Assembly: GCA_001899395.1 (NCBI GenBank) | Contig: MOYD01000024.1 | Span: 436-64,435, forward strand | Length of the DNA: 64,000 bases | Direction of reading: 5' to 3' | Source: Candidatus Gastranaerophilales bacterium Zag_111 | Lineage (GTDB): Bacteria > Cyanobacteriota > Vampirovibrionia > Gastranaerophilales > Gastranaerophilaceae | Shown here: one piece after another, positions 9,384-57,852 of the stretch | Position numbering within the stretch: position 1 is the stretch's first letter | Layout: the number at the start of each line of letters is the position of its first letter | Made by a program: the position numbers and the translations under genes | Notes under the pieces: generated by a model | The model's input: the letters and a program-made list of their open reading frames with translations, nothing else | Database searches by the model: none | Told to the model about the DNA's origin: nothing

Positions 9384-9457
9384 TGGAAGGTCGTCTAAAG
9401 GTAGGACACGGGACTTTGACTCCTGCAATAATAGTTCGAGTCTATTTCTTCCAGCCA
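9384..9457 (+). tRNA. tRNA-Gln (anticodon UUG), CCA encoded
   Basis: Hand-folded cloverleaf: acceptor TGGAAGG/TCTTCCA, D GTCT/GGAC, anticodon stem CGGGA/TCCTG, loop CTTTGAC, T AATAG-TTCGAGT-CTATT. U1-A72 and G73 are typical of tRNA-Gln. Confidence 0.85.
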
Positions 9458-10216: not shown

Positions 10217-10537
10217 GGGGTCGTATTAGGTTCGACAGCATAATGGAAAATATTAAGCAAGCAAACCTTTTAACAAGAAATTGCACTAGTAATTTTGCAA
10301 TGGCTGCCTAAGTGCAGCCCGTCAATTATAAGTTCCTGTTGCGGCTTATAAGTTGGCGTGGATTAGCAACAGAAAAACTCAGGACAATTGTAATGCGTCT
10401 TGTTTCACCTCCTAAATTACATGGCGGCTCAATAGTTTTGTTCATTTTGTAGAGCTACTATATTAAAATGAAATAAGCTTGTAGAAAGATATTGGAAGTT
10501 ATGTTGGACAGGAGTGCAATTCTCCTCGACTCCACCA
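10217..10537 (+). ncRNA. ssrA: tmRNA (SsrA)
   Basis: 5' GGGGTCGTATTAGGTTCGAC pairs with 3' CGACTCCACCA and includes the G3-U70 Ala identity pair. T-arm AGGAG-TGCAATT-CTCCT. Internal tag frame ..ANLLTRNCTSNFAMAA-TAA. Confidence 0.85.
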
Positions 10538-40910: not shown

Positions 40911-43310
40911 ATGATATTAATGCCCGAAGCTATCGCCGCCGCAACAACGAGATTATTCAAAACAAGAGGAAAAACATTTTATAGAAATGGAATTCAATTG
41001 GAAAAAGGTGCAGTAATTAATGAGAATAGAATAAGATATAATTTAGATTTGTATGAATATTATTTTGATTTATTCAGCCAATATCCAGATATATTTATTG
41101 AATTGATTACTCCAACTGATTCAAAATTTAAACTTAAATTTTTCTAGGTTATTTTTCTAAGAGCTTGTCTACGTTATGGTCGTGTATCAGCTACTATGCC
41201 CCGTGCGGCTGGCAAGTCTTTTATTTGTATTTTAGCACTTTATTTGATTTGTATTTTTAGACCTAGGTCACACGTCAAGAAGGGCGCACTTATATTGTGA
41301 AGTGTAAGTGAAAAGATTAATTAAAAGCTGGGAAATTCTAATACTATTGATACTCGTTGCGCCGCCGCAATTTACTTAAGGCATTTTCATTGTGCAAATG
41401 GCGGCGAAGAGTTGTGAAAACAGAAACAAATTAATAGTTGGCTCATGGTTAAATCCTAAAAGCTGTGATAATGAATAATCAGCACCAAAAAGATTAAAAG
41501 AATCTTGGTTCAACGACTATTCCCTTGAGGAAGTAGGTAATACCGAAAAATTAATCGTCTTAGTAATAAGAATTGATATAGTCTAAAAGCTTTTTATGTT
41601 CACCTGGTCGAAATCAGGGCGTTAAAATTGCAACAGAAAAAATTAAACAACTATTTAATATTTTTCCTTTGTTAAAAAATGAATTAGTGGGAAATGGTAA
41701 TTTTTCGAATGATTATGTTAAGTTGACATTTAGAAATGGCTCATTATTCGATGTAATGACGCCATTAAACTCCACTCGTGGTAATCGTGCTACGTGTGGT
41801 ATTATAGATGAACATCGTTAGATAGCGATGTAAAAACTGCCTAAATTGCGGGAACGCCCTTAGAGCTTTAATAACTAAACAATTATAGTGATATAATTGC
41901 GGCAAGGTATAACGGCTTTGGTATAGTAATATAATTAAAGATTGGGTAATCAAATGCAGCAAATCTTCTCTTGAGAAGAATGTTCAGAGACTATGTAGTA
42001 AGACTTCGGTCTGAAAAAGGCAGCATATTTTTATATGATGATATAGTCCAATCCCTAAATAAATATGTCGAAAGACAGGGTTCTAAATGGATCACAACGC
42101 AGACGATATCAATGAGATCATTCTGCCTTTACTCAACGTTGACCGCCCTATGGTCAATGGAGACATAAATGAGAATGAACCTCAACAGGTTCAATTCTGG
42201 ATTTCGTCAGCGGGAGATAAAAATACATATAGTTATGATAAGACAATTGAATTATTTGAACAATAGATAATCTAGCCAAGTAAAGTGTTTTGCTTTGGAA
42301 TGGATTATAGAATTCCAATTATTTCAGGATTATTAACACCAGCATACTTGAATGAAATTAAATTGTCACCGACCTTTAATGAAATAAGCTTTGCAAAAGA
42401 ATATATGTCCCGATTTACTGGTGGCTCACAAGATGCTTGGTTTGATTTCGAGAAACTGGATTAGAATAGAACATTGATTAATCCTGAGACTCATGAGAAC
42501 CTTAAACCTGGCATCAACGCATACTATGTCATTTCAGTGGATGTGGCTCGCATAGGATGTTAGACGGTTGCCACTGTACTCAAGGTATTTCCTGATATAG
42601 AAAATGGATATAGAATTAATTTGGTAAACATATACGTACTCGGTAAAACGGAAGAGGAAAAAATCTTTGACAGATAGGTTGCAGAGCTTAAGTACTTGAT
42701 AGAGCAATTCAACCCTAAGGTCGTGATCATAGATATAAATGGCATCGGAATTTCCTTTGCAGATGCAATGATTAAAGAGACTTTTGACGAAAAATTTCAA
42801 GTAATGCGCCCAGCTTACGGCTTTAATAATAGAGAGGAATATTTACCTCTACAACCTCGTGGCTGTGAGAAGATTCTTTATGGAATTAAAGCAAATGCGC
42901 AACTTAATAGCGATATGCACTCTGCTTTATATTCAAAAGTCTATTCTGGCAAGCTTAAATTTTTAATTTCAGAAAGTGATGCAAAAGTTAAACTTCTTGC
43001 AACTAAAAAAGGGCAAAGAATGAGTCCTGAGGATAAGAATAAACGCCTATTACCTCATGAAATTACCTCTATTTTAATTAATGAAATTATGAATTTAAAA
43101 CTCAAGCCAACAGGCAATGCAAATCAGATTGCTGTTGAACAAATTAATGAACGGACATTAAAAGACAAGTTCTCTGCACTGGAGATGGGGATTTATTGGA
43201 TAGTACAAGAGGAAAACACTTTAATGTCTCGCCGCCGCAATAGAGGTTTAGGTGGTAAAAAAAGAACCTTAGTATTTTCCGGTAGAGGAGGTGGAGGTGA
43301 TAAAAGATGA
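40911..43310 (+). CDS. terL: Terminase large subunit, three exons (40911..41275, 41599..41818, 42090..43310), 6 in-frame TAG
   Basis: Walker A MPRAAGKS (exon 1), Walker B GIIDEH (exon 2), nuclease-domain-like exon 3. Frames are restored exactly by the two predicted introns. Confidence 0.8.
41276..41598 (+). ncRNA. Group I self-splicing intron (terL intron 1, ORF-less)
   Basis: Core GTTCAACGACTATTCCC..GGAAGTAGG..GATATAGTC is like the T4 td intron. Predicted P1 ACGT/GTGT and P10 TTCAC/GTGAA. Terminal G at 41598 (41589 is an alternative). Confidence 0.7.
41819..42089 (+). ncRNA. Group I self-splicing intron (terL intron 2, ORF-less)
   Basis: 7-bp P1 ACATCGT/GCGATGT with U-G at the splice site. 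Core GTTCAGAGACTATGTAG..GATGATATAGTCC is like the Tetrahymena P7 region. Terminal G at 42089. Confidence 0.75.
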
Positions 43311-51490: not shown

Positions 51491-51516
51491 AAATTTAATA
51501 AAGGAGGTTGATGATT

Positions 51517-54500
51517 ATGGCACAAAACCTTTTTGAAAAATACGGCATTAAGGAAGTTGCTGATGTGTGGCTTTCTCGTATTGAACGGAAAGAAGAAACT
51601 TATGAATCTCAAAGAAAGATTCCTGTATCTTCTATTCTAAAAAGCGCATTGACCTTAGAGACTGTTTATCCTCTTGATACAGATGGTAAGGGTGCAGATG
51701 AGGGCTATGAAGCTTATGTGTTTAAGGATGCCGATGTGCTGACTCATTATAATTATGATTGTGATGATGAAGTTACGGTTATTGGTAAGGGTTATGTTCT
51801 TGATGTTCCAGGCGAGGAACCAGAAGCTCAAACTGATGCTGATACTGGTGAAGTAATTAGTGATTATCCTACTAAAGCTGAAAGCTATTATTCAGACTCA
51901 GATGCTTTTACAGAAGCTTATACCAATAGTATTTTGACAATTAATTCTGCTTATGATAAAAATTCATTAAGAAATATTCTTTCTTCTGTTAAAGCTTACT
52001 TAGCTGGTACAGATTATGAAATCAGTGAAGTTACAATTTCAGATGTTACGATTTCTAATAGTTATAATACTTCTAGTACTTTAGATGGTAATGCTAGTGT
52101 AGATGGATCAACTTTAATTACTTATGTATCATATCTAAAGTCCGCATATAGTGATGCTACAACTTTAGACACTCAGGGGAATGAAGTTTCTTATCCCCCA
52201 GAAATCTATTTTACGGTTGCAAAATCTGATGCTTACAACTGGGTAGCAGTAAGAGCTGCTATTGCAGAGTATCTATTATCTATTGACGCAAGCGAAGGTT
52301 ATGGTATCGATATTGATGAAACGGACGTTTATGGAATTTATACTGTTCCTAAATCTACAACTGAAGAATCTACTTCTACAGCCCTGACAACTGTTGATGT
52401 TTCAGCTATTAATATTGATTTTACCTATACAGACGGCGATGGTAATTCAATTAGTGTGAATTTGTCATATAGTGATGAAGAATATCTATCGGTTGCTTTG
52501 CCTACAAGTGTTGTAGAATATTTGACTGGTGCATCAGCTACTGAACCTGATGCAGAAGATGTTGTTGCGGCACTAGAAATTCTTTATAATACAGATGGTG
52601 TTACAGTAACTCCTGAGGATGTGACAGATTCAGAAAATTAGACACTTTCAGAAGATTACGAAGATGGCGATGAACTATCGATTGATTTTTCATATATAGA
52701 AGGCTTTAATTATACTATCGTTCCTATGGATGATGATAGCTATGAAAGTGGTACTTTTATCCTTACTATCGTTCTATATCCGATTTATAGCTTTAATTAT
52801 GAGATTGTTTTTGCGTCTGCCGAAGAAGCTCTTACGGGTATTTTTGATGTAACTACTGAATCACCTGATAACGCAACTGGAAATACAGGTCATTACGTAA
52901 CCGATCCAGATTATGCAGATCAAGGTACTCATGAATTCACCTATGCAGAACAAGTTTGCTTAATCTTTGCAAAAGCACAGAATCTAATTACTAAACGTGG
53001 TACTCGTTATCAGTTTACCGATGCAAACACCACCTTTAGTGACATTGAATTCAGTGATGAATTTGCAGCGGCACCTAACTCTTCAGAAAGAGTTGTGGTT
53101 GCTGGTTTAGCAGATAAAATTTCTGAAAATCTATATGATTTGGATGAAATTAATGAATACATTAAAACTCAACTAACTGATACAATTGATGCGAAAGCTT
53201 ATGATATTGTATATACCGATTATGCAGAGCTTGTTGTTGAGGATGAGATGGGTTACTATTTACCACAGCAACTTGGTACTTACAATAGAACAACTAAGAA
53301 AATGGAATTCTTTGGTGATGGCGGCTATACTGCATATGCAACTGCACTAAAGGGTGTAGATATTGGTATTAGTACGGCAGTTAGTACTTGGGGTAATGAT
53401 AAGCATTATAGTATTAATGACGCAATTGACGCTTTGAAGCAAGAAAAACGAGTTATCGATGGCGAAGTTGATCTTGGTACTGTTGGATTTGAAAGAATCT
53501 TTGGCGGCTACAAGGTACTTGGTGCTGATGATGGCGAGAAAGAAAAAGCTGGTCTACCATTCAATGATGGACAGGGCGTTTATGGATACGAAGTTAATGG
53601 CGAAGCAGTAACAAGTGTAATTGATGATTCTGCTGTATATAGCGGTTATCCTCTTGATTCTGTACTAGAAGCAATTGCATCTATGGAATCTCAGATTGAG
53701 GGGGCGCACTTACGTGTTAATAATGACTTCTTAATTCAGTCCAATAGAGCAATTTACGTTGATGCAGCATCTGCTTCTACATCTGCGCGCGCTCATATTT
53801 ACTTGCTAAGAAATATCAATGCTAAGAAACTTACATCTGATTCTGCTGGTATTTTCGAATTCTATGATAAGAAGGGCAATAAGCTTCATTATCAAGATAG
53901 AATCTTTGCTGGCACAGAATATCTAGCACTTGTTACCATTGGTCAGTCTGGTCTAATCTTTGTTGTTGAAAGACACGGAACAAAGAATATTGATAAGATC
54001 GCTTGGATGGTAAGTGACGGTGGCTTCTTAACAAATAAACAAGCTGAGAAGATTGTTGCTAATGGTCTAATCCATACAGTAGATGTTACAGTATGTGACG
54101 AATCCTTTGATGCAACTTGCACAGTAGGTTCTATCAAGATTCGTAAGACCAAGAAGAGCGTTCTTCACTATGTTCCAGTTCTTTATTTAGATACTCTTAA
54201 GGTTAGTACAATTGAGCAAGCCGCTGAAACAGTAGATGCTACTGGTGGTCGTGGCAATGCTAAACTAATTACTTGGGACTTCAGTAAAGAAATCACACTA
54301 TCTATTGAAGATGCATTATTTACACCAGCATCTATGGCTGCTATTTGGGGCGGCGAACATGGTGATGTTAAGAATGGCGTTAAGGATACACATCACATTG
54401 ATAGAATGGAAAAGATCACTGCTAAGAGAAGCTTCATTGTACCAGCAGGTAATAGCCTAGGTACTCCTACTGAAGGCGATATTACTGCTCAGGCTGTTTA

Positions 54501-55565
54501 CTATGATCCTCAGACAATGGAACCATTCCAAGATGGTACTCCAATTGCAGAGGGCGAAGTGATTTATAAGTTTACACGTTCTGTAGCTTATGATGATAAT
54601 AGTATTGGTAATACAATTGAAATTTCTGCGGAGAAATTCCCTGGTACTTATCGTGTAGTAGGCGAGACTTATGTACGTGATAAGAAGACTGGTGAAGATC
54701 AGAGATTCCAGTTCGTTATTCCAGAGGCTAAACATTTGGTCGCTTAAGTGGAAACATTTAAGGCAATAATTAATTAATTGCTGGGAAAACTTAGGTCAAA
54801 TAAACCACAACGCAGTCAGGAATGGCATTCGTGAAGGTTTGAAAATTATTTGATAGTAGAGTTAATCAGCAGCGCGGCGACAGCAATCGCAACGTTCAAC
54901 GACTATTCCGAGAGGAAGTAGAGGTTAAGTAATCTCGAAATATTAAATACCTGAAAAGGTAAAGATATAGTCTTATCATTTGCGGTGACGCAAAGTTCTA
55001 GACAAAGTAATACGAATACTTTGAAAAAATAAATGAAAATGTCAGCAGAAGATACATCCATTACGCTTGAAGCGGATGGAGATCCAGTCGTAAACAGTAA
55101 AATCAAATGCGACTGTAAAATTGCTTAATTGCTGGGAACTCCTTAGAGCTAATAAAACTACAACATAATCTGAAAAGATAAGTGTGAATGTTAAAAATTT
55201 ATTAGATTGGACAATCAGCAGCGTAGTACCTTAAAGGGTAAACGTTCAACGACTATTCCGTAAGGAAGTAGAAGTTAAATAACTTCGATGTGACAATTAC
55301 TGAAAAGTAAAGATATAGTCTGAACTTCTATTGAAAGATAGAGATATAACAAAATTGGTTTGACTTTACAATGGATGTCCTTCGTCCAGACGATGGCGTA
55401 ATGATGAAGTTCATTCAGTTTGATACAGTAGAAAACGAAGAAGAGAACGATGGTTCTACAATGGTTAAGGATACTGAAAACCTCAACCTACTTGACGATG
55501 CAGAAATGTATAAGATTAGTAGTGATACAGAGGAAGACCTAGCTATTGGTGCTACTGAATATTAA
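51517..55565 (+). CDS. Structural paralog 1 (1158 aa), exons 51517..54729, 55036..55091, 55358..55565, 1 in-frame TAG
   Basis: N-terminal MAQNLFEKYGIKEVADV plus VLYLDTLKVST..LITWDFSKEITLSIEDAL. C-terminal GETYVRDKKTGEDQRFQF..ITLEADGDP..GVMMKF is restored only after removing two introns. Confidence 0.7.
54730..55035 (+). ncRNA. Group I intron (paralog-1 intron 1, ORF-less)
   Basis: Core TTGCTGGGAAAA..AATCAGCAGCG..GTTCAACGACTATTCCG..GGAAGTAG..GATATAGTC. Starts AAACA like intron 2. Boundaries come from frame and paralog alignment. P1 is weak, so allow a few nt of error. Confidence 0.65.
55092..55357 (+). ncRNA. Group I intron (paralog-1 intron 2, ORF-less)
   Basis: P1 CAGTCGT/GCGACTG with U-G at the splice site. 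P10 GTTTGA/TCAAAT. Same core as intron 1. Terminal G at 55357. Frame restored. Confidence 0.8.
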
Positions 55566-55668
55566 TAGATATAAAATAAGGTAAAATGGTAAGTTGCAGC
55601 CATTGGCGATCTAATGGTCCAATGGCTGCTTTTACTTATCATAATTAAATACGGAGGTGAATGGAATA

Positions 55669-57837
55669 ATGAATTTATTTGATCAATATGGTATTAAAGA
55701 AGTCGCTGACGTAACAATCTATAGTATTCATAAGAAAGAAGATGGTAGCGGCGAAACATATTATATGCCAGCCTTGTATCTTGATACTTTAAAAGTTACT
55801 ACAACTGAAAAGACTGCTGAAAATACTTGGGCACAGGGCGGCCTAGGCAATTCTCGTTTGATTTCTTGGGATTATTCAAAGGAAATTAATATGACTCTTG
55901 AAGATGCTCTTTGTACTCCTGCTTCACTTGGTCTATGCTGGGGCGGCGTATTGAGTTCTGATTGGAAAGATGCGCAAGTTAATCACCAGTATGGAATTAC
56001 TGATAGTGGTTGTGGCACTGAAAGAATTTCAAGAATGGAAAAATGCTTCTATCCTAGAAATGATATGGCAAATGCTACTGTTAGTTCTTTACTCCCTCGT
56101 GATGGAAAAGAAGACATTGCAGAAGATTGGAATGGCGATTTAGCTTACTTAACTCGTTCTTCTGTTCTTGATGGTACAGTAGTAAAAGGTTTTGGTTATG
56201 TAGATAGTCATCCTTATAAATGGCATTTAGAGATTGAAACTGCTGTTAAGTCTGTGGCTGTAGTTCCAGATAGATTCTATTCTACTCTTGGAAAAGGATA
56301 TCCGATTAAGAAATTCCAGACTGTAGGGATTAATCAGCCCTCAGAGTCTTTTAAATATGAGATAATTTATAGACGTGGTGCAGATAACTATCCTTTTGAA
56401 GCTCCAAAAGCTAAAATTATTTATAATAGACAAGCAGCAGAAGAAGGAGAAAAAACCTTAGCCTGCTGGGATCAACTTGAAGCAATTTCTATGTTAGATG
56501 ATATGGTAACATATCCTTTCTTAAAGATCAGGGTTTGTCTTGACGGTTCAATTAAAGCATATCTTGGTACTGAATCTGTTGATTGGGATTTGGAACGTAC
56601 CATTGACGAAACTGTAGCTGATGCTGATAAATACTGGGTAGAAAATCCATATATTAATACTGAGCAATTTAGATATATTGATATGTGGGAACGATTTGAT
56701 AGCATTAATGCTCTTTCTTATTATTTAATTACTAAATATGAGGAGAATATTTATTCTATTGGTCCGAAAGATATTAAACCAGGTATCCCATTAAATACAT
56801 ATACTGGAATTACCTATTATACCGTACCATCAGGCAGTTATAGTTTTGTAATAAAAGAAGGACAGGTTGTTAATATAGAAGTGTATGATTATGGTACTGA
56901 TTCAGATACAATGGATGAAACAACAGCAAATGATGTTATTAATAAAGTTCCTGAAGATTTAACAGTTACCTTCACGTTGACAGAAGATTTGAATGTTCCA
57001 GCGAACAGTGAGAAAGAAGCTATATATATTGCATTTTTGTATGCATATGGTGCCGTAGATATTGAGAGCGTAACTGATGATTCTAATATTACTTATTATA
57101 CGATTACTAAAAACTCTAGTGCAGATAACTGCGTAGTAGATAGTACATCTGAAGAAGTGACTTACAATGTTGGCGTTTTATCTGTTTAGTTTAATGAGAT
57201 TGATAGTAGTAGCATTACAACCACGGGTGTCACACAAACAAACGTTAGAGCAGGTGACGCGCATGTTGGATTAGGCGACCCAAGCAATCCTACAAATGGT
57301 GTAGTTGGCTTAGATTATGACTTAACAGATTCAAACCTCGCTATTGATAGTGGAACCTGTGTTCCGTGTTGTAAGAAAGCTAATTTAAGTCGTGCAATTT
57401 GGGCATATGTAAATCCTAGAACAATGTCTCCTTATGATGATGATTATTGGTTCCATCAAGGTGAGCCATATCTTAAGAAATCACTATCATTAAGTGCTAA
57501 GAATTCTAAGCTCAAAGCTCAGAAAATTGTTGTCAACACTGGAGAGTTCCCTGGCATGTATAAGATTGTAGGTGAGACTTATATTAGATCTCGTGAAACA
57601 GGTGAGGATGAACGTGTTCAACTATCATTCCCATTATGTAAAATTAAGTCTGACCAAACACTAACGCTTGAAGCAGATGGTGACCCAACAACCTTTAATC
57701 TAGATGTTGAAGTTGCTGTGCCGCCAAATGGTGTTGCAATGGAAATTACATTTTACGATGTTGAAAAGGAAATGACTTCAAGTTGCAATGGTAGTAGAGT
57801 TGAAAAGGATGGTTCAACACGAGTAAGTGCGCAGTAA
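55669..57837 (+). CDS. Structural paralog 2 (722 aa), 1 in-frame TAG
   Basis: MNLFDQYGIKEVADV.. and ..GETYIRSRETGEDERVQ..LEADGDPTTF. ORFs 55657..57189 and 57424..57837 share a frame. Confidence 0.7.
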
Positions 57838-57852
57838 GGGAGGTGACGTTAG

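Follow-up and report, generated by a model that had tools for sequence, protein, structure and literature searches.

Two predicted group I introns around a 56-nucleotide micro-exon in a putative tail tube gene of a gut-associated phage

Tandem group I introns placed around a micro-exon are an already known arrangement, and the locus described here leaves the understanding of how group I introns work unchanged. The arrangement in orf142 of phage Twort was reportedly described by Landthaler and Shub in 1999, and the intron pair in the 23S ribosomal RNA (rRNA) gene of Coxiella burnetii is said to have been described by Hicks et al. in 2011. The td, nrdB and sunY genes of phage T4 carry introns of the IA2 type with GIY-YIG endonucleases (I-TevI, I-TevII). 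The subject of this study is a stretch of 64,000 nucleotides (nt) of contig MOYD01000024.1 (assembly GCA_001899395.1, Candidatus Gastranaerophilales bacterium Zag_111), referred to as the window. It contains the first of five tandem tail-tube paralogs (paralog 1), a gene of ~1159 residues after splicing, which is interrupted by two group I introns separated by an exon of 56 nt. Relatives of the window phage come from gut samples.

In Twort, orf142 was later recognized as the tail tube gene (PMC10136302, PMC11878797). Of its three introns, two of the IA2 type are highly similar and enclose an exon of 23 nt, and skipping of this exon was observed. The 23S rRNA gene of Coxiella burnetii has two group I introns around a 34-nt exon, with skipping also seen (PMC10136302, PMC11878797, PMC3073962). 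In engineered constructs with Tetrahymena introns in tandem, an exon of 24 nt is skipped unless the elements for splice-site recognition have been made to differ (PMC10136302). Multi-intron genes are frequent in the Bastillevirinae, where polymerase and terminase genes have two or three group I introns with small internal exons, and exon skipping was found there by sequencing of complementary DNA (PMC11878797). The same survey reports introns only in terminase genes and in genes of DNA and nucleotide metabolism, and none in tail genes (PMC11878797). A stop-codon-recoded intron endonuclease is known from the TGA-recoded 'Agate' gut phages (bioRxiv 10.1101/2021.08.26.457843). The literature search found no paper that describes introns in gut-phage tube genes of the YomU type, which is not proof that there is none.

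Both strands of the 64-kb window were scanned in full against Rfam. RF00028, the model for group I introns (curated gathering score 50 bits), matches over its full length (positions 1-253) at 54720-54995 (69.3 bits, E-value 1.7e-15) and again at 55052-55343 (66.0 bits, E-value 1.6e-14). These scores, both above the threshold, together with the colinearity of orthologues and the covariation of guide and exon, confirm the intron boundaries and the 56-nt exon that a preliminary description of this DNA had proposed (Table 1). The insertion positions of introns 1 and 2 will be referred to as site 1 and site 2. A U closes each 5' exon (54729 and 55091), and the terminal G of the introns is at 55035 and 55357. 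Exon 1 has a single in-frame TAG (52642-52644, Gln), and its 3' end is ...GAGGCU, with GCU (Ala) as the final codon. The joins 54729/55036 and 55091/55358 produce one frame, in which ...QRFQFVIPEA is followed by KMSAEDTSITLEADGDPV and then by VFDFTMDVLRPDDGVMMKF...; written out, the exon 3 side of the spliced product is VFDFTMDVLRPDDGVMMKFIQFD...IGATEY*, and the predicted junction peptides are ...VIPEAKMSAEDTSITLEADGDPVVFDFTMDVLR.... The TAA that ends the unspliced open reading frame (ORF), at 54745-54747, sits within the P2 hairpin of intron 1, and neither intron holds an ORF on the plus strand. A fold of 658 nt of this region is more stable than shuffled sequences (z = -4.6), and the local hairpins of the two introns reappear in it. 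It is highly probable that both elements are genuine group I introns and that the ORF continues across both, with their splicing activity predicted.

The same frame is found in relatives that have no introns here. A search of IMG/VR with the spliced C-terminus gave 44 loci, and 35 of them encode the homologous 330 residues uninterrupted, with no change in length at either junction. Two proteins, P0001 (83% identical) and P0069 (92% over the overlap), are also continuous through both junctions (...IPEAKMS..ITLEADG[DE]PVVF.F.MDVLRP...), and removal of both introns restores the frame as had been suggested. This colinearity rules out the alternative that the ORF truly ends at the TAA with 55371..55565 as an independent gene. 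The 64-residue ORF at 55371-55565 is the tail of exon 3 and no separate gene; an exact look-up of it found no database record. Another in-frame 3' splice site for intron 1, G55041 (...EASAED...), was rejected. It would drop a conserved Lys-Met (AKM[ST] in the orthologues), and P10 fits 55035; the latter is the correct site because the orthologues are colinear and keep the Lys-Met. A nested arrangement (twintron) was rejected as well, as the introns are in tandem with 56 nt of coding exon between them, and this exon is conserved in orthologues. Protein P0027, which ends in ...PQAKL, was considered as a truncation at site 1 and is actually due to a read-through TAG codon.

The sequence elements of both ribozymes can be placed individually. 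In intron 2, P1 is formed by CAGUCGU of the exon (55085-55091) and GCGACUG (55109-55115), with a U.G pair at the splice site (U55091-G55109), and P10 by GUUUGA (55358-55363) and UCAAAU (55103-55108), exactly as first described. This intron has no P2. In intron 1, P1 is short, with GGCU/AAA (the slash marking the splice site) facing UUUGGUC before a mismatch, and U54729-G54738 is the U.G wobble. Its P10 has 6 base pairs (bp), between AAAUGU (55037-55042) and ACAUUU (54732-54737). Two hairpins of intron 1 have no counterpart in intron 2: P2, of 8 bp and capped by a GAAA loop (54743-54762), and one of 7 bp that follows P9 (55003-55023). The P4, J6/7-P7 (GUUCAACGACUA) and J8/7-P7' (AAGAUAUAGUCU) segments are identical between the two introns. 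In the minimum-free-energy fold, P7 and the 3' strand of P3 are separated in both introns by two small hairpins, the first being UUCCGNNNGGAA and the second AGGUU...AAUCU or AAGUU...AACUU. The core segments are 72-80% identical to those of introns in phages of Staphylococcus, Enterococcus, Bacillus, Lactococcus, Aeromonas and Yersinia. Over their full length, introns 1 and 2 are ~63-65% identical in multi-intron alignments, and the alignment of just these two sequences has a mean column identity of 77%. Within the micro-exon, the P10 segment of intron 1 and the P1 segment of intron 2 do not overlap; no order is therefore imposed, and the introns should be able to splice either way round.

Introns in other contigs provide evidence from covariation. 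Another 12 contigs have an intron exactly at site 2 (L037, L040, L041, L042, L043, L044, L038, L039, L045, L048, L074 and L086), which represent 7 distinct intron sequences. Pairs were counted in our own alignment, assembled from fixed-register segments, and both P1 and P10 covary across the distinct site-2 introns. All P1 positions pair (100%); in 4 of the 7 pairs both strands have changed in a compensatory way, following synonymous changes of the exon that fall largely on codon wobble positions (Table 1). P10 is 95% paired, with one compensatory change. The observed covariation score was reached by none of 500 shuffles, and sliding the partner strand reduces pairing to 30-44%. The U.G pair at the splice site is invariant in 7 site-2 and 3 site-1 introns. 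In these relatives the guide shifts along with the exon, which requires selection for splicing.

An intron exactly at site 1 is also found in L035, a contig from human gut (the same as L156 and L217), and in L219-L224, a lineage that is more distant and whose tube gene has one module (Rfam 77.1 bits). When intron 1 is compared with the site-1 introns of L035 and L219, the P2 hairpin is 100% paired, with compensatory changes in 4 of 8 pairs. Of ~48 orthologous contigs, 35 are intronless. An intron at site 2 alone is found in 12 and one at site 1 alone in 1, and no contig combines the two. The nearest relatives on both sides of the micro-exon are L001 and L007 (~80-87% nucleotide identity), and they carry neither intron. 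The idea that the two introns exclude each other was set aside, as frequencies of ~1/48 and 12/48 predict ~0.25 double carriers in 48 contigs. Because site-1 introns are rare, the absence of other double carriers says little on incompatibility.

Pattern scans of viral, metagenome and genome collections, one of them badly designed, found no further site-1 introns. With the pattern GGCTAAACAN{1,8}TTTGGTCGCTTAA, the metagenomes returned just the L035 contig and one chance match in GC-rich DNA; the window, which has zero spacer bases, was excluded by the pattern itself. The pattern GGCTAAACATTTGGNCGC gave chance matches only on viral and genome contigs, and ATTCCNNNGGCTAAACA was too loose to be useful. 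Intron scans were also carried out with an nhmmer profile built from nine aligned introns. A match to this profile in an unrelated viral contig (L119, 3857-4128, minus strand, E-value 2e-11) is probably another phage group I intron.

A rival explanation is regulated alternative splicing, in which some transcripts would join 54729 to 55358 and thereby tune the amount of full-length paralog 1 or yield a truncated form. We regard it as possible, with the odds leaning clearly to the other side. Exon skipping has been reported for Twort orf142 and for a gene of phage SIOphi (PMC11878797). The P7 strands of the two window introns are identical, and a 5-bp A/U hybrid P3 could form. However, the skipped join reads ...GAG GCU GUU UGA, with a frameshift, an immediate stop and the loss of the last 86 residues. 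According to the preliminary description, skipping would delete the ADGDP motif; it would truncate the protein instead, because 56 is not a multiple of 3 (remainder 2). Moreover, the guide of intron 2 pairs with the end of exon 1 at only 2 of 7 positions. The guides are specific to their own exons, and cross-recognition is therefore not favoured. By the logic of the Tetrahymena constructs, in which differentiated splice-site recognition favours exon inclusion, the different guides of the window introns predict mainly exon inclusion (PMC10136302). The overall identity of the two introns is also modest, whereas introns 2 and 3 of Twort are described as highly similar.

A more specific form of this idea is that the 56-nt spacing itself is functional. 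A hybrid ribozyme or stepwise mis-splicing would then give a frameshifted mRNA ending in ...IPEAV*, which would regulate full-length paralog 1. This is improbable; if true, the intron pair would be a ribozyme-based control of the dose of a heavily decorated paralog 1 in a tail of five tube paralogs. With exon inclusion, the preferred outcome, the guide GGUC.. of intron 1 and the guide GCGACUG of intron 2 would each select their own 5' exon. The micro-exon would supply P10 to intron 1 with its 5' end and P1 to intron 2 with its 3' end, and its inclusion would give the sole in-frame product, the tube protein of ~1159 residues.

The origin of the pair can be examined by comparison with introns elsewhere. 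The identity of intron 2 to introns that occupy site 2 elsewhere is 70-77%, and intron 1 is closest to the site-1 intron of L035 (65-67%). In average-linkage clustering all site-2 introns fall together, the three site-1 introns fall together, and an intron from a third site lies outside both groups. A P2 is present in the site-1 introns only and not in those at site 2. The introns thus group by insertion site and not by genome, which argues for independent gains without local duplication. The most economical history would be that the two introns were acquired independently. Each would descend from a mobile intron whose intron-encoded GIY-YIG/NUMOD endonuclease directed it to a separate site within a conserved motif, and both window copies would afterwards have lost the endonuclease gene. 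We infer both homing as the route of arrival and this loss.

Local duplication would make the two introns true twins, one having given rise to the other, through ectopic transposition or reverse splicing, at a similar site 56 nt from its own (after UCCAGAGGCU in one case and after UCCAGUCGU in the other). The introns had been called twins before, and this holds as far as the shared AAACA start and the identical P4, P7 and J8/7 core segments are concerned; UCCAG is also found in both 5' exon contexts. The term does not extend to their descent or their architecture. Each is closer to introns at the same site elsewhere, the P2 of intron 1 is shared, with covariation, by other site-1 introns only, and each site is occupied singly in other genomes. 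A duplication is very unlikely on these grounds.

Long versions of the intron that carry an endonuclease gene exist at both sites. They are found in L035 (site 1, 961 nt), L038 (site 2, 938 nt) and L042/L043 (site 2, 1005 nt), with an ORF in the P6 loop that has a GIY...YIG motif. These ORFs match Pfam NUMOD1 and PHROG families whose annotations are 'homing endonuclease' and 'homing endonuclease with GIY-YIG motif'. Between the two enzymes of site 2 the identity is 57%, compared to 39% between them and the enzyme of site 1, and the endonucleases thus also group by insertion site. Apart from the ORF, L038 and L039 are 99% identical, and L042 and L044 are 98% identical; these two pairs capture gain or loss of the endonuclease gene directly. 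No peripheral loop of the window introns has an endonuclease ORF, and in this respect they are unlike mobile group I introns with a homing endonuclease gene. In-frame TAG codons are present in the endonuclease ORFs of L035 (3, at 5040-6000) and L042 (8, at 4995-5999), with none in the homologous ORF of L038. The L035 and L042 endonucleases appear to use the reassigned codon, which would limit their translation to the recoded phase of infection. Elsewhere in the window, a free-standing ORF of 102 residues (5518-5826, plus strand) has a GIY...YVGQ motif and weak tblastn similarity (E-value 3e-5) to the intron endonuclease of L035, and may encode a stand-alone GIY-YIG domain protein.

Several points weigh against the reading of two splicing introns of separate descent. 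The splicing itself is one that we infer from the sequence. The double arrangement was seen once among the collections searched, in the window only. P1 of intron 1 has 4 bp with the exon and then a mismatch, a feature that is nevertheless usual in its lineage. The membership of intron 1 in the site-1 lineage is weak by identity (65-67% to L035 compared to 63-65% to intron 2), and this assignment is made mainly because of the shared P2, the insertion site and a similar 3' end. Finally, both introns resemble the phage IA2 type, with P7.1-/P7.2-like hairpins, a subgroup that was judged by eye.

Decay of the two elements is another reading that is very unlikely. If they no longer spliced, paralog 1 would end at TAA 54745, the 55371-55565 segment would be an unrelated small ORF or a remnant, and the other paralogs would provide the tube function. 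There are four intact paralogs downstream, the P1 of intron 1 is weak, and both introns are without endonuclease genes. However, the three exons are open and colinear with orthologues at ~80-87% nucleotide identity, both cores exceed the curated threshold, none of the conserved junction segments is damaged, and the guides match their exons, the guide changing along with the exon in relatives. An assembly chimera, to which nothing points, is also very unlikely. In it, intron-1-only and intron-2-only strains would have been joined through the shared 56-nt exon; a stretch of this length can be bridged in a de Bruijn graph and no other contig has the double arrangement, but exons 1 and 3 have the same nearest relatives (L001 and L007) at similar divergence with no switch across the micro-exon, the rarity of site-1 introns (~1/48 orthologous contigs) makes co-occurring strains unlikely, and all three exons are in frame.

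The host gene belongs to a family of phage structural proteins, as had been proposed. If TAG is taken as a sense codon, the window from 51.5 kb to its end contains the five tandem paralogs, all of one tail-tube family. They share an N-terminal block (NLFxxYGIKEVADV) and a C-terminal block (FPGxYxxVGETY...TGxDQRxQ...L[EQ]ADGDP), with long unrelated insertions between them. The family matches phrog_2729, 'virion structural protein' (E-value 2.5e-33), and its tblastn matches in large siphophages of Bacillus, Lactococcus and Brevibacillus are annotated as tail tube or major tail protein. PF27173 (YomU_Tube) is the precomputed annotation on orthologues, and a sequence-profile search of the Protein Data Bank with the family finds the solved tail tube proteins 8k98 and 9jgh (E-value 2e-8). 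By sequence, annotation and profile match to solved structures, the gene product belongs to the YomU-type (PF27173) tail tube proteins. The local copy of Pfam, which is without the YomU_Tube model, left the tube protein unmatched, and the family name was taken from the precomputed annotations. An AlphaFold model of the orthologue P0010 has a mean predicted local distance difference test score (pLDDT) of 59, too poor for a fold search. In the five paralogs (51508-64000, plus strand) the tube blocks are split by unrelated insertions of 400-830 residues, and a typical family member has ~258 residues. In paralog 1 the N-terminal GIKEVADV block lies ~830 residues upstream of the remaining tube module.

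TAG stands where other paralogs have Gln, for example KTGKD-TAG-RFQ compared to KTGEDQRFQ, and the phage is predicted to read TAG as glutamine. In-frame TAG codons at Gln positions are frequent from ~26 kb onward (~26000-64000), with up to 14 per ORF, and the first 25 kb is almost free of them. This distribution along the window fits a recoding of late genes from TAG to Gln. In the window, ARAGORN detected an ordinary tRNA-Gln(UUG) at 9384-9457 but no suppressor transfer RNA (tRNA) with anticodon CUA. A full-length transfer-messenger RNA gene is present at 10217-10537 (plus strand, Rfam 94.3 bits), with tRNA genes on either side and otherwise phage sequence around it.

Both introns lie in a well-conserved part of the gene. 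The preliminary description placed them in the most conserved motif; TLEADGDP is indeed the best-conserved block of the C-terminal half, and it is third overall, behind GIKEVADV and LDTLKVST, when conservation is ranked in a de-duplicated family alignment of 27 sequences. The four downstream paralogs had been considered as potential homing targets. They are intron-free at the homologous sites, and when the fetched flanks of ~48 related contigs were scanned with the intron profile, none of the paralogs there had an intron. Position -1 of site 2 is C, not U, in all four (..ACAAC/, ..GUUAC/, ..ACGAC/). At site 1 the U at position -1 is found in paralog 2 only and is missing from the other three, and the flanks are divergent. 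The paralogs are poor targets because the window introns have no endonuclease gene, the U at -1 is mostly absent, and the flanks differ. The TAG codons of the paralogs, which had been placed right at these sites, are Gln codons that lie further upstream: in paralogs 3 and 4 they precede site 1 by 30 nt, and in paralog 5 the distance to site 2 is ~20 nt.

A third group I intron site in the tube family, 'site 0', is found in other lineages directly after GIKEVAD, within the most conserved motif (GIKEVAD/V). In L219 the site-0 intron (2686-3003, Rfam 86.7 bits) has no ORF, and the site-1 intron follows ~600 nt downstream; in L225 (~650-1500) it carries an HNH_3/NUMOD endonuclease gene. Database proteins that start with MVTFYK... 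(P0042, P0065 and P0083) are gene calls truncated by the site-0 intron. Introns have thus repeatedly targeted conserved motifs of the tube family. A reading linked to that of a functional 56-nt spacing, and likewise improbable, is that YomU-type tube genes of gut phages would be a hotspot with three homing sites (after GIKEVAD, P.A and ADGDPx), where in-frame TAGs delay the endonucleases until late infection.

Table 1. Positions of the exons, introns, ribozyme elements and paralogs in the window, and P1 strands of site-2 introns
Feature	Position	Strand	Basis or sequence
Exon 1 of paralog 1	51508..54729	+	translation with TAG read through; tblastn colinearity with orthologues
Group I intron 1, 306 nt, AAACA... 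to ...AAAUG	54730..55035	+	Rfam 69.3 bits, motif coordinates, P2 covariation
Micro-exon 2, 56 nt, codes KMSAEDTSITLEADGDPV and 2 nt of the following Val codon	55036..55091	+	sequence, orthologue proteins
Group I intron 2, 266 nt, AAACA... to ...AAUUG	55092..55357	+	Rfam 66.0 bits, motif coordinates, P1/P10 covariation
Exon 3, starts GUUUGAC, first G completes the Val codon; FDFTMDVLRPDDGVMMKF...IGATEY, TAA 55563-55565	55358..55565	+	contiguous in 35 orthologous loci
Intron 1, guide GGUC(GCU)	54738-54744	+	motif coordinates
Intron 1, P4 region AAUUGCUGGGAA	54776-54787	+	motif coordinates
Intron 1, J6/7-P7 GUUCAACGACUA	54894-54905	+	motif coordinates
Intron 1, P8	54949-54960	+	motif coordinates
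Intron 1, J8/7-P7' AAGAUAUAGUCU	54962-54973	+	motif coordinates
Intron 1, P9	54979-54994	+	motif coordinates
Intron 1, terminal G	55035	+	motif coordinates
Intron 2, P4 region	55127-55138	+	motif coordinates
Intron 2, J6/7-P7	55244-55255	+	motif coordinates
Intron 2, P8	55299-55308	+	motif coordinates
Intron 2, J8/7-P7'	55310-55321	+	motif coordinates
Intron 2, P9	55327-55342	+	motif coordinates
Intron 2, terminal G	55357	+	motif coordinates
Four further paralogs, intron-free at the homologous sites	55669-57837, 57853-59976, 59990-62173, ~62190 to beyond 64000	+	translation, nhmmer intron-profile scan
Site-2 P1, window			exon CAGUCGU, guide GCGACUG
Site-2 P1, L037			exon CCGCGGU, guide GCCGCGG
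Site-2 P1, L040			exon CAGUGGU, guide GCCACUG
Site-2 P1, L042			exon CAACGGU, guide GCUGUUG
Site-2 P1, L039			exon CAACCGU, guide GCGGUUG
Site-2 P1, L045			exon CGAGCGU, guide GCGCUCG
Site-2 P1, L048			exon CAGCGGU, guide GCCGCUG

Two group I introns appear to interrupt the gene for the terminase large subunit of the window phage as well (41290-41580 and 41822-42080, plus strand). The Rfam score for 41767-42070 is 45.1 bits, below the threshold of 50 (E-value 1e-9), and the intron profile matches 41459-41587 and 41822-42053. The ORF pieces, when joined conceptually (...PRAAGKS...RPRSHV, FLCSPG...GIIDEHR and MDHNAD...), are colinear with phrog_15503 across both junctions and match phrog_2, terminase large subunit.

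The value of the tube gene locus lies in a comparative series of alleles: intronless (35 contigs), site-1-only, site-2-only, and with or without an endonuclease gene, together with a guide that covaries with synonymous exon changes. With this series the homing cycle (gain of the intron, loss of the endonuclease, loss of the intron) becomes testable in an uncultured gut-phage lineage. It would also allow tests of co-conversion between sites 56 nt apart and of exon skipping by tandem ribozymes. There is a practical consequence for annotation. Standard gene callers truncate the tube gene (...EAKHLVA* and an orphan ORF of 64 residues), and in-frame TAGs fragment neighbouring genes; pipelines for gut phages must therefore handle both introns and recoding.

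The locus can be compared with the known systems as follows. Like the T4 introns, the lineage of the window introns has an endonuclease ORF in a peripheral loop, probable homing to conserved sequence, and variants with and without the ORF in related phages. T4 has one intron per gene, in genes of nucleotide metabolism, whereas the window has two introns without an ORF in one structural gene. As in the Bastillevirinae, the terminase gene of the window appears to have two introns, but here introns are also present in a tail gene. The intron endonuclease ORFs of L035 and L042 resemble that of the Agate phages in having in-frame reassigned stops (TAG), which would delay translation until the code switch. 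In contrast, the recoding here is TAG to Gln and not TGA to Trp, the gene is a late structural gene and not an early one, and the window introns have no endonuclease ORF. The Coxiella pair is likewise made up of two non-identical group I introns around a very short exon in highly conserved sequence. It differs in that the gene is a bacterial rRNA gene with no reading frame to keep and the introns are of subgroups IB2 and IA3.

The closest parallel is Twort orf142. It differs from the window in its tube family (myovirus compared to YomU-type), in the number of introns (three compared to two) and in the length of the exon (23 nt compared to 56 nt). The window introns are ~63-65% identical, with clearly different guides, P2 and P9; TAG is Gln; and the window is known from sequence alone. 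In both cases, however, introns that belong to or resemble the IA2 type are crowded into one tail tube gene with a micro-exon between two related introns, and the length of this exon leaves a remainder of 2 on division by 3 (23 and 56), such that skipping shifts the frame.

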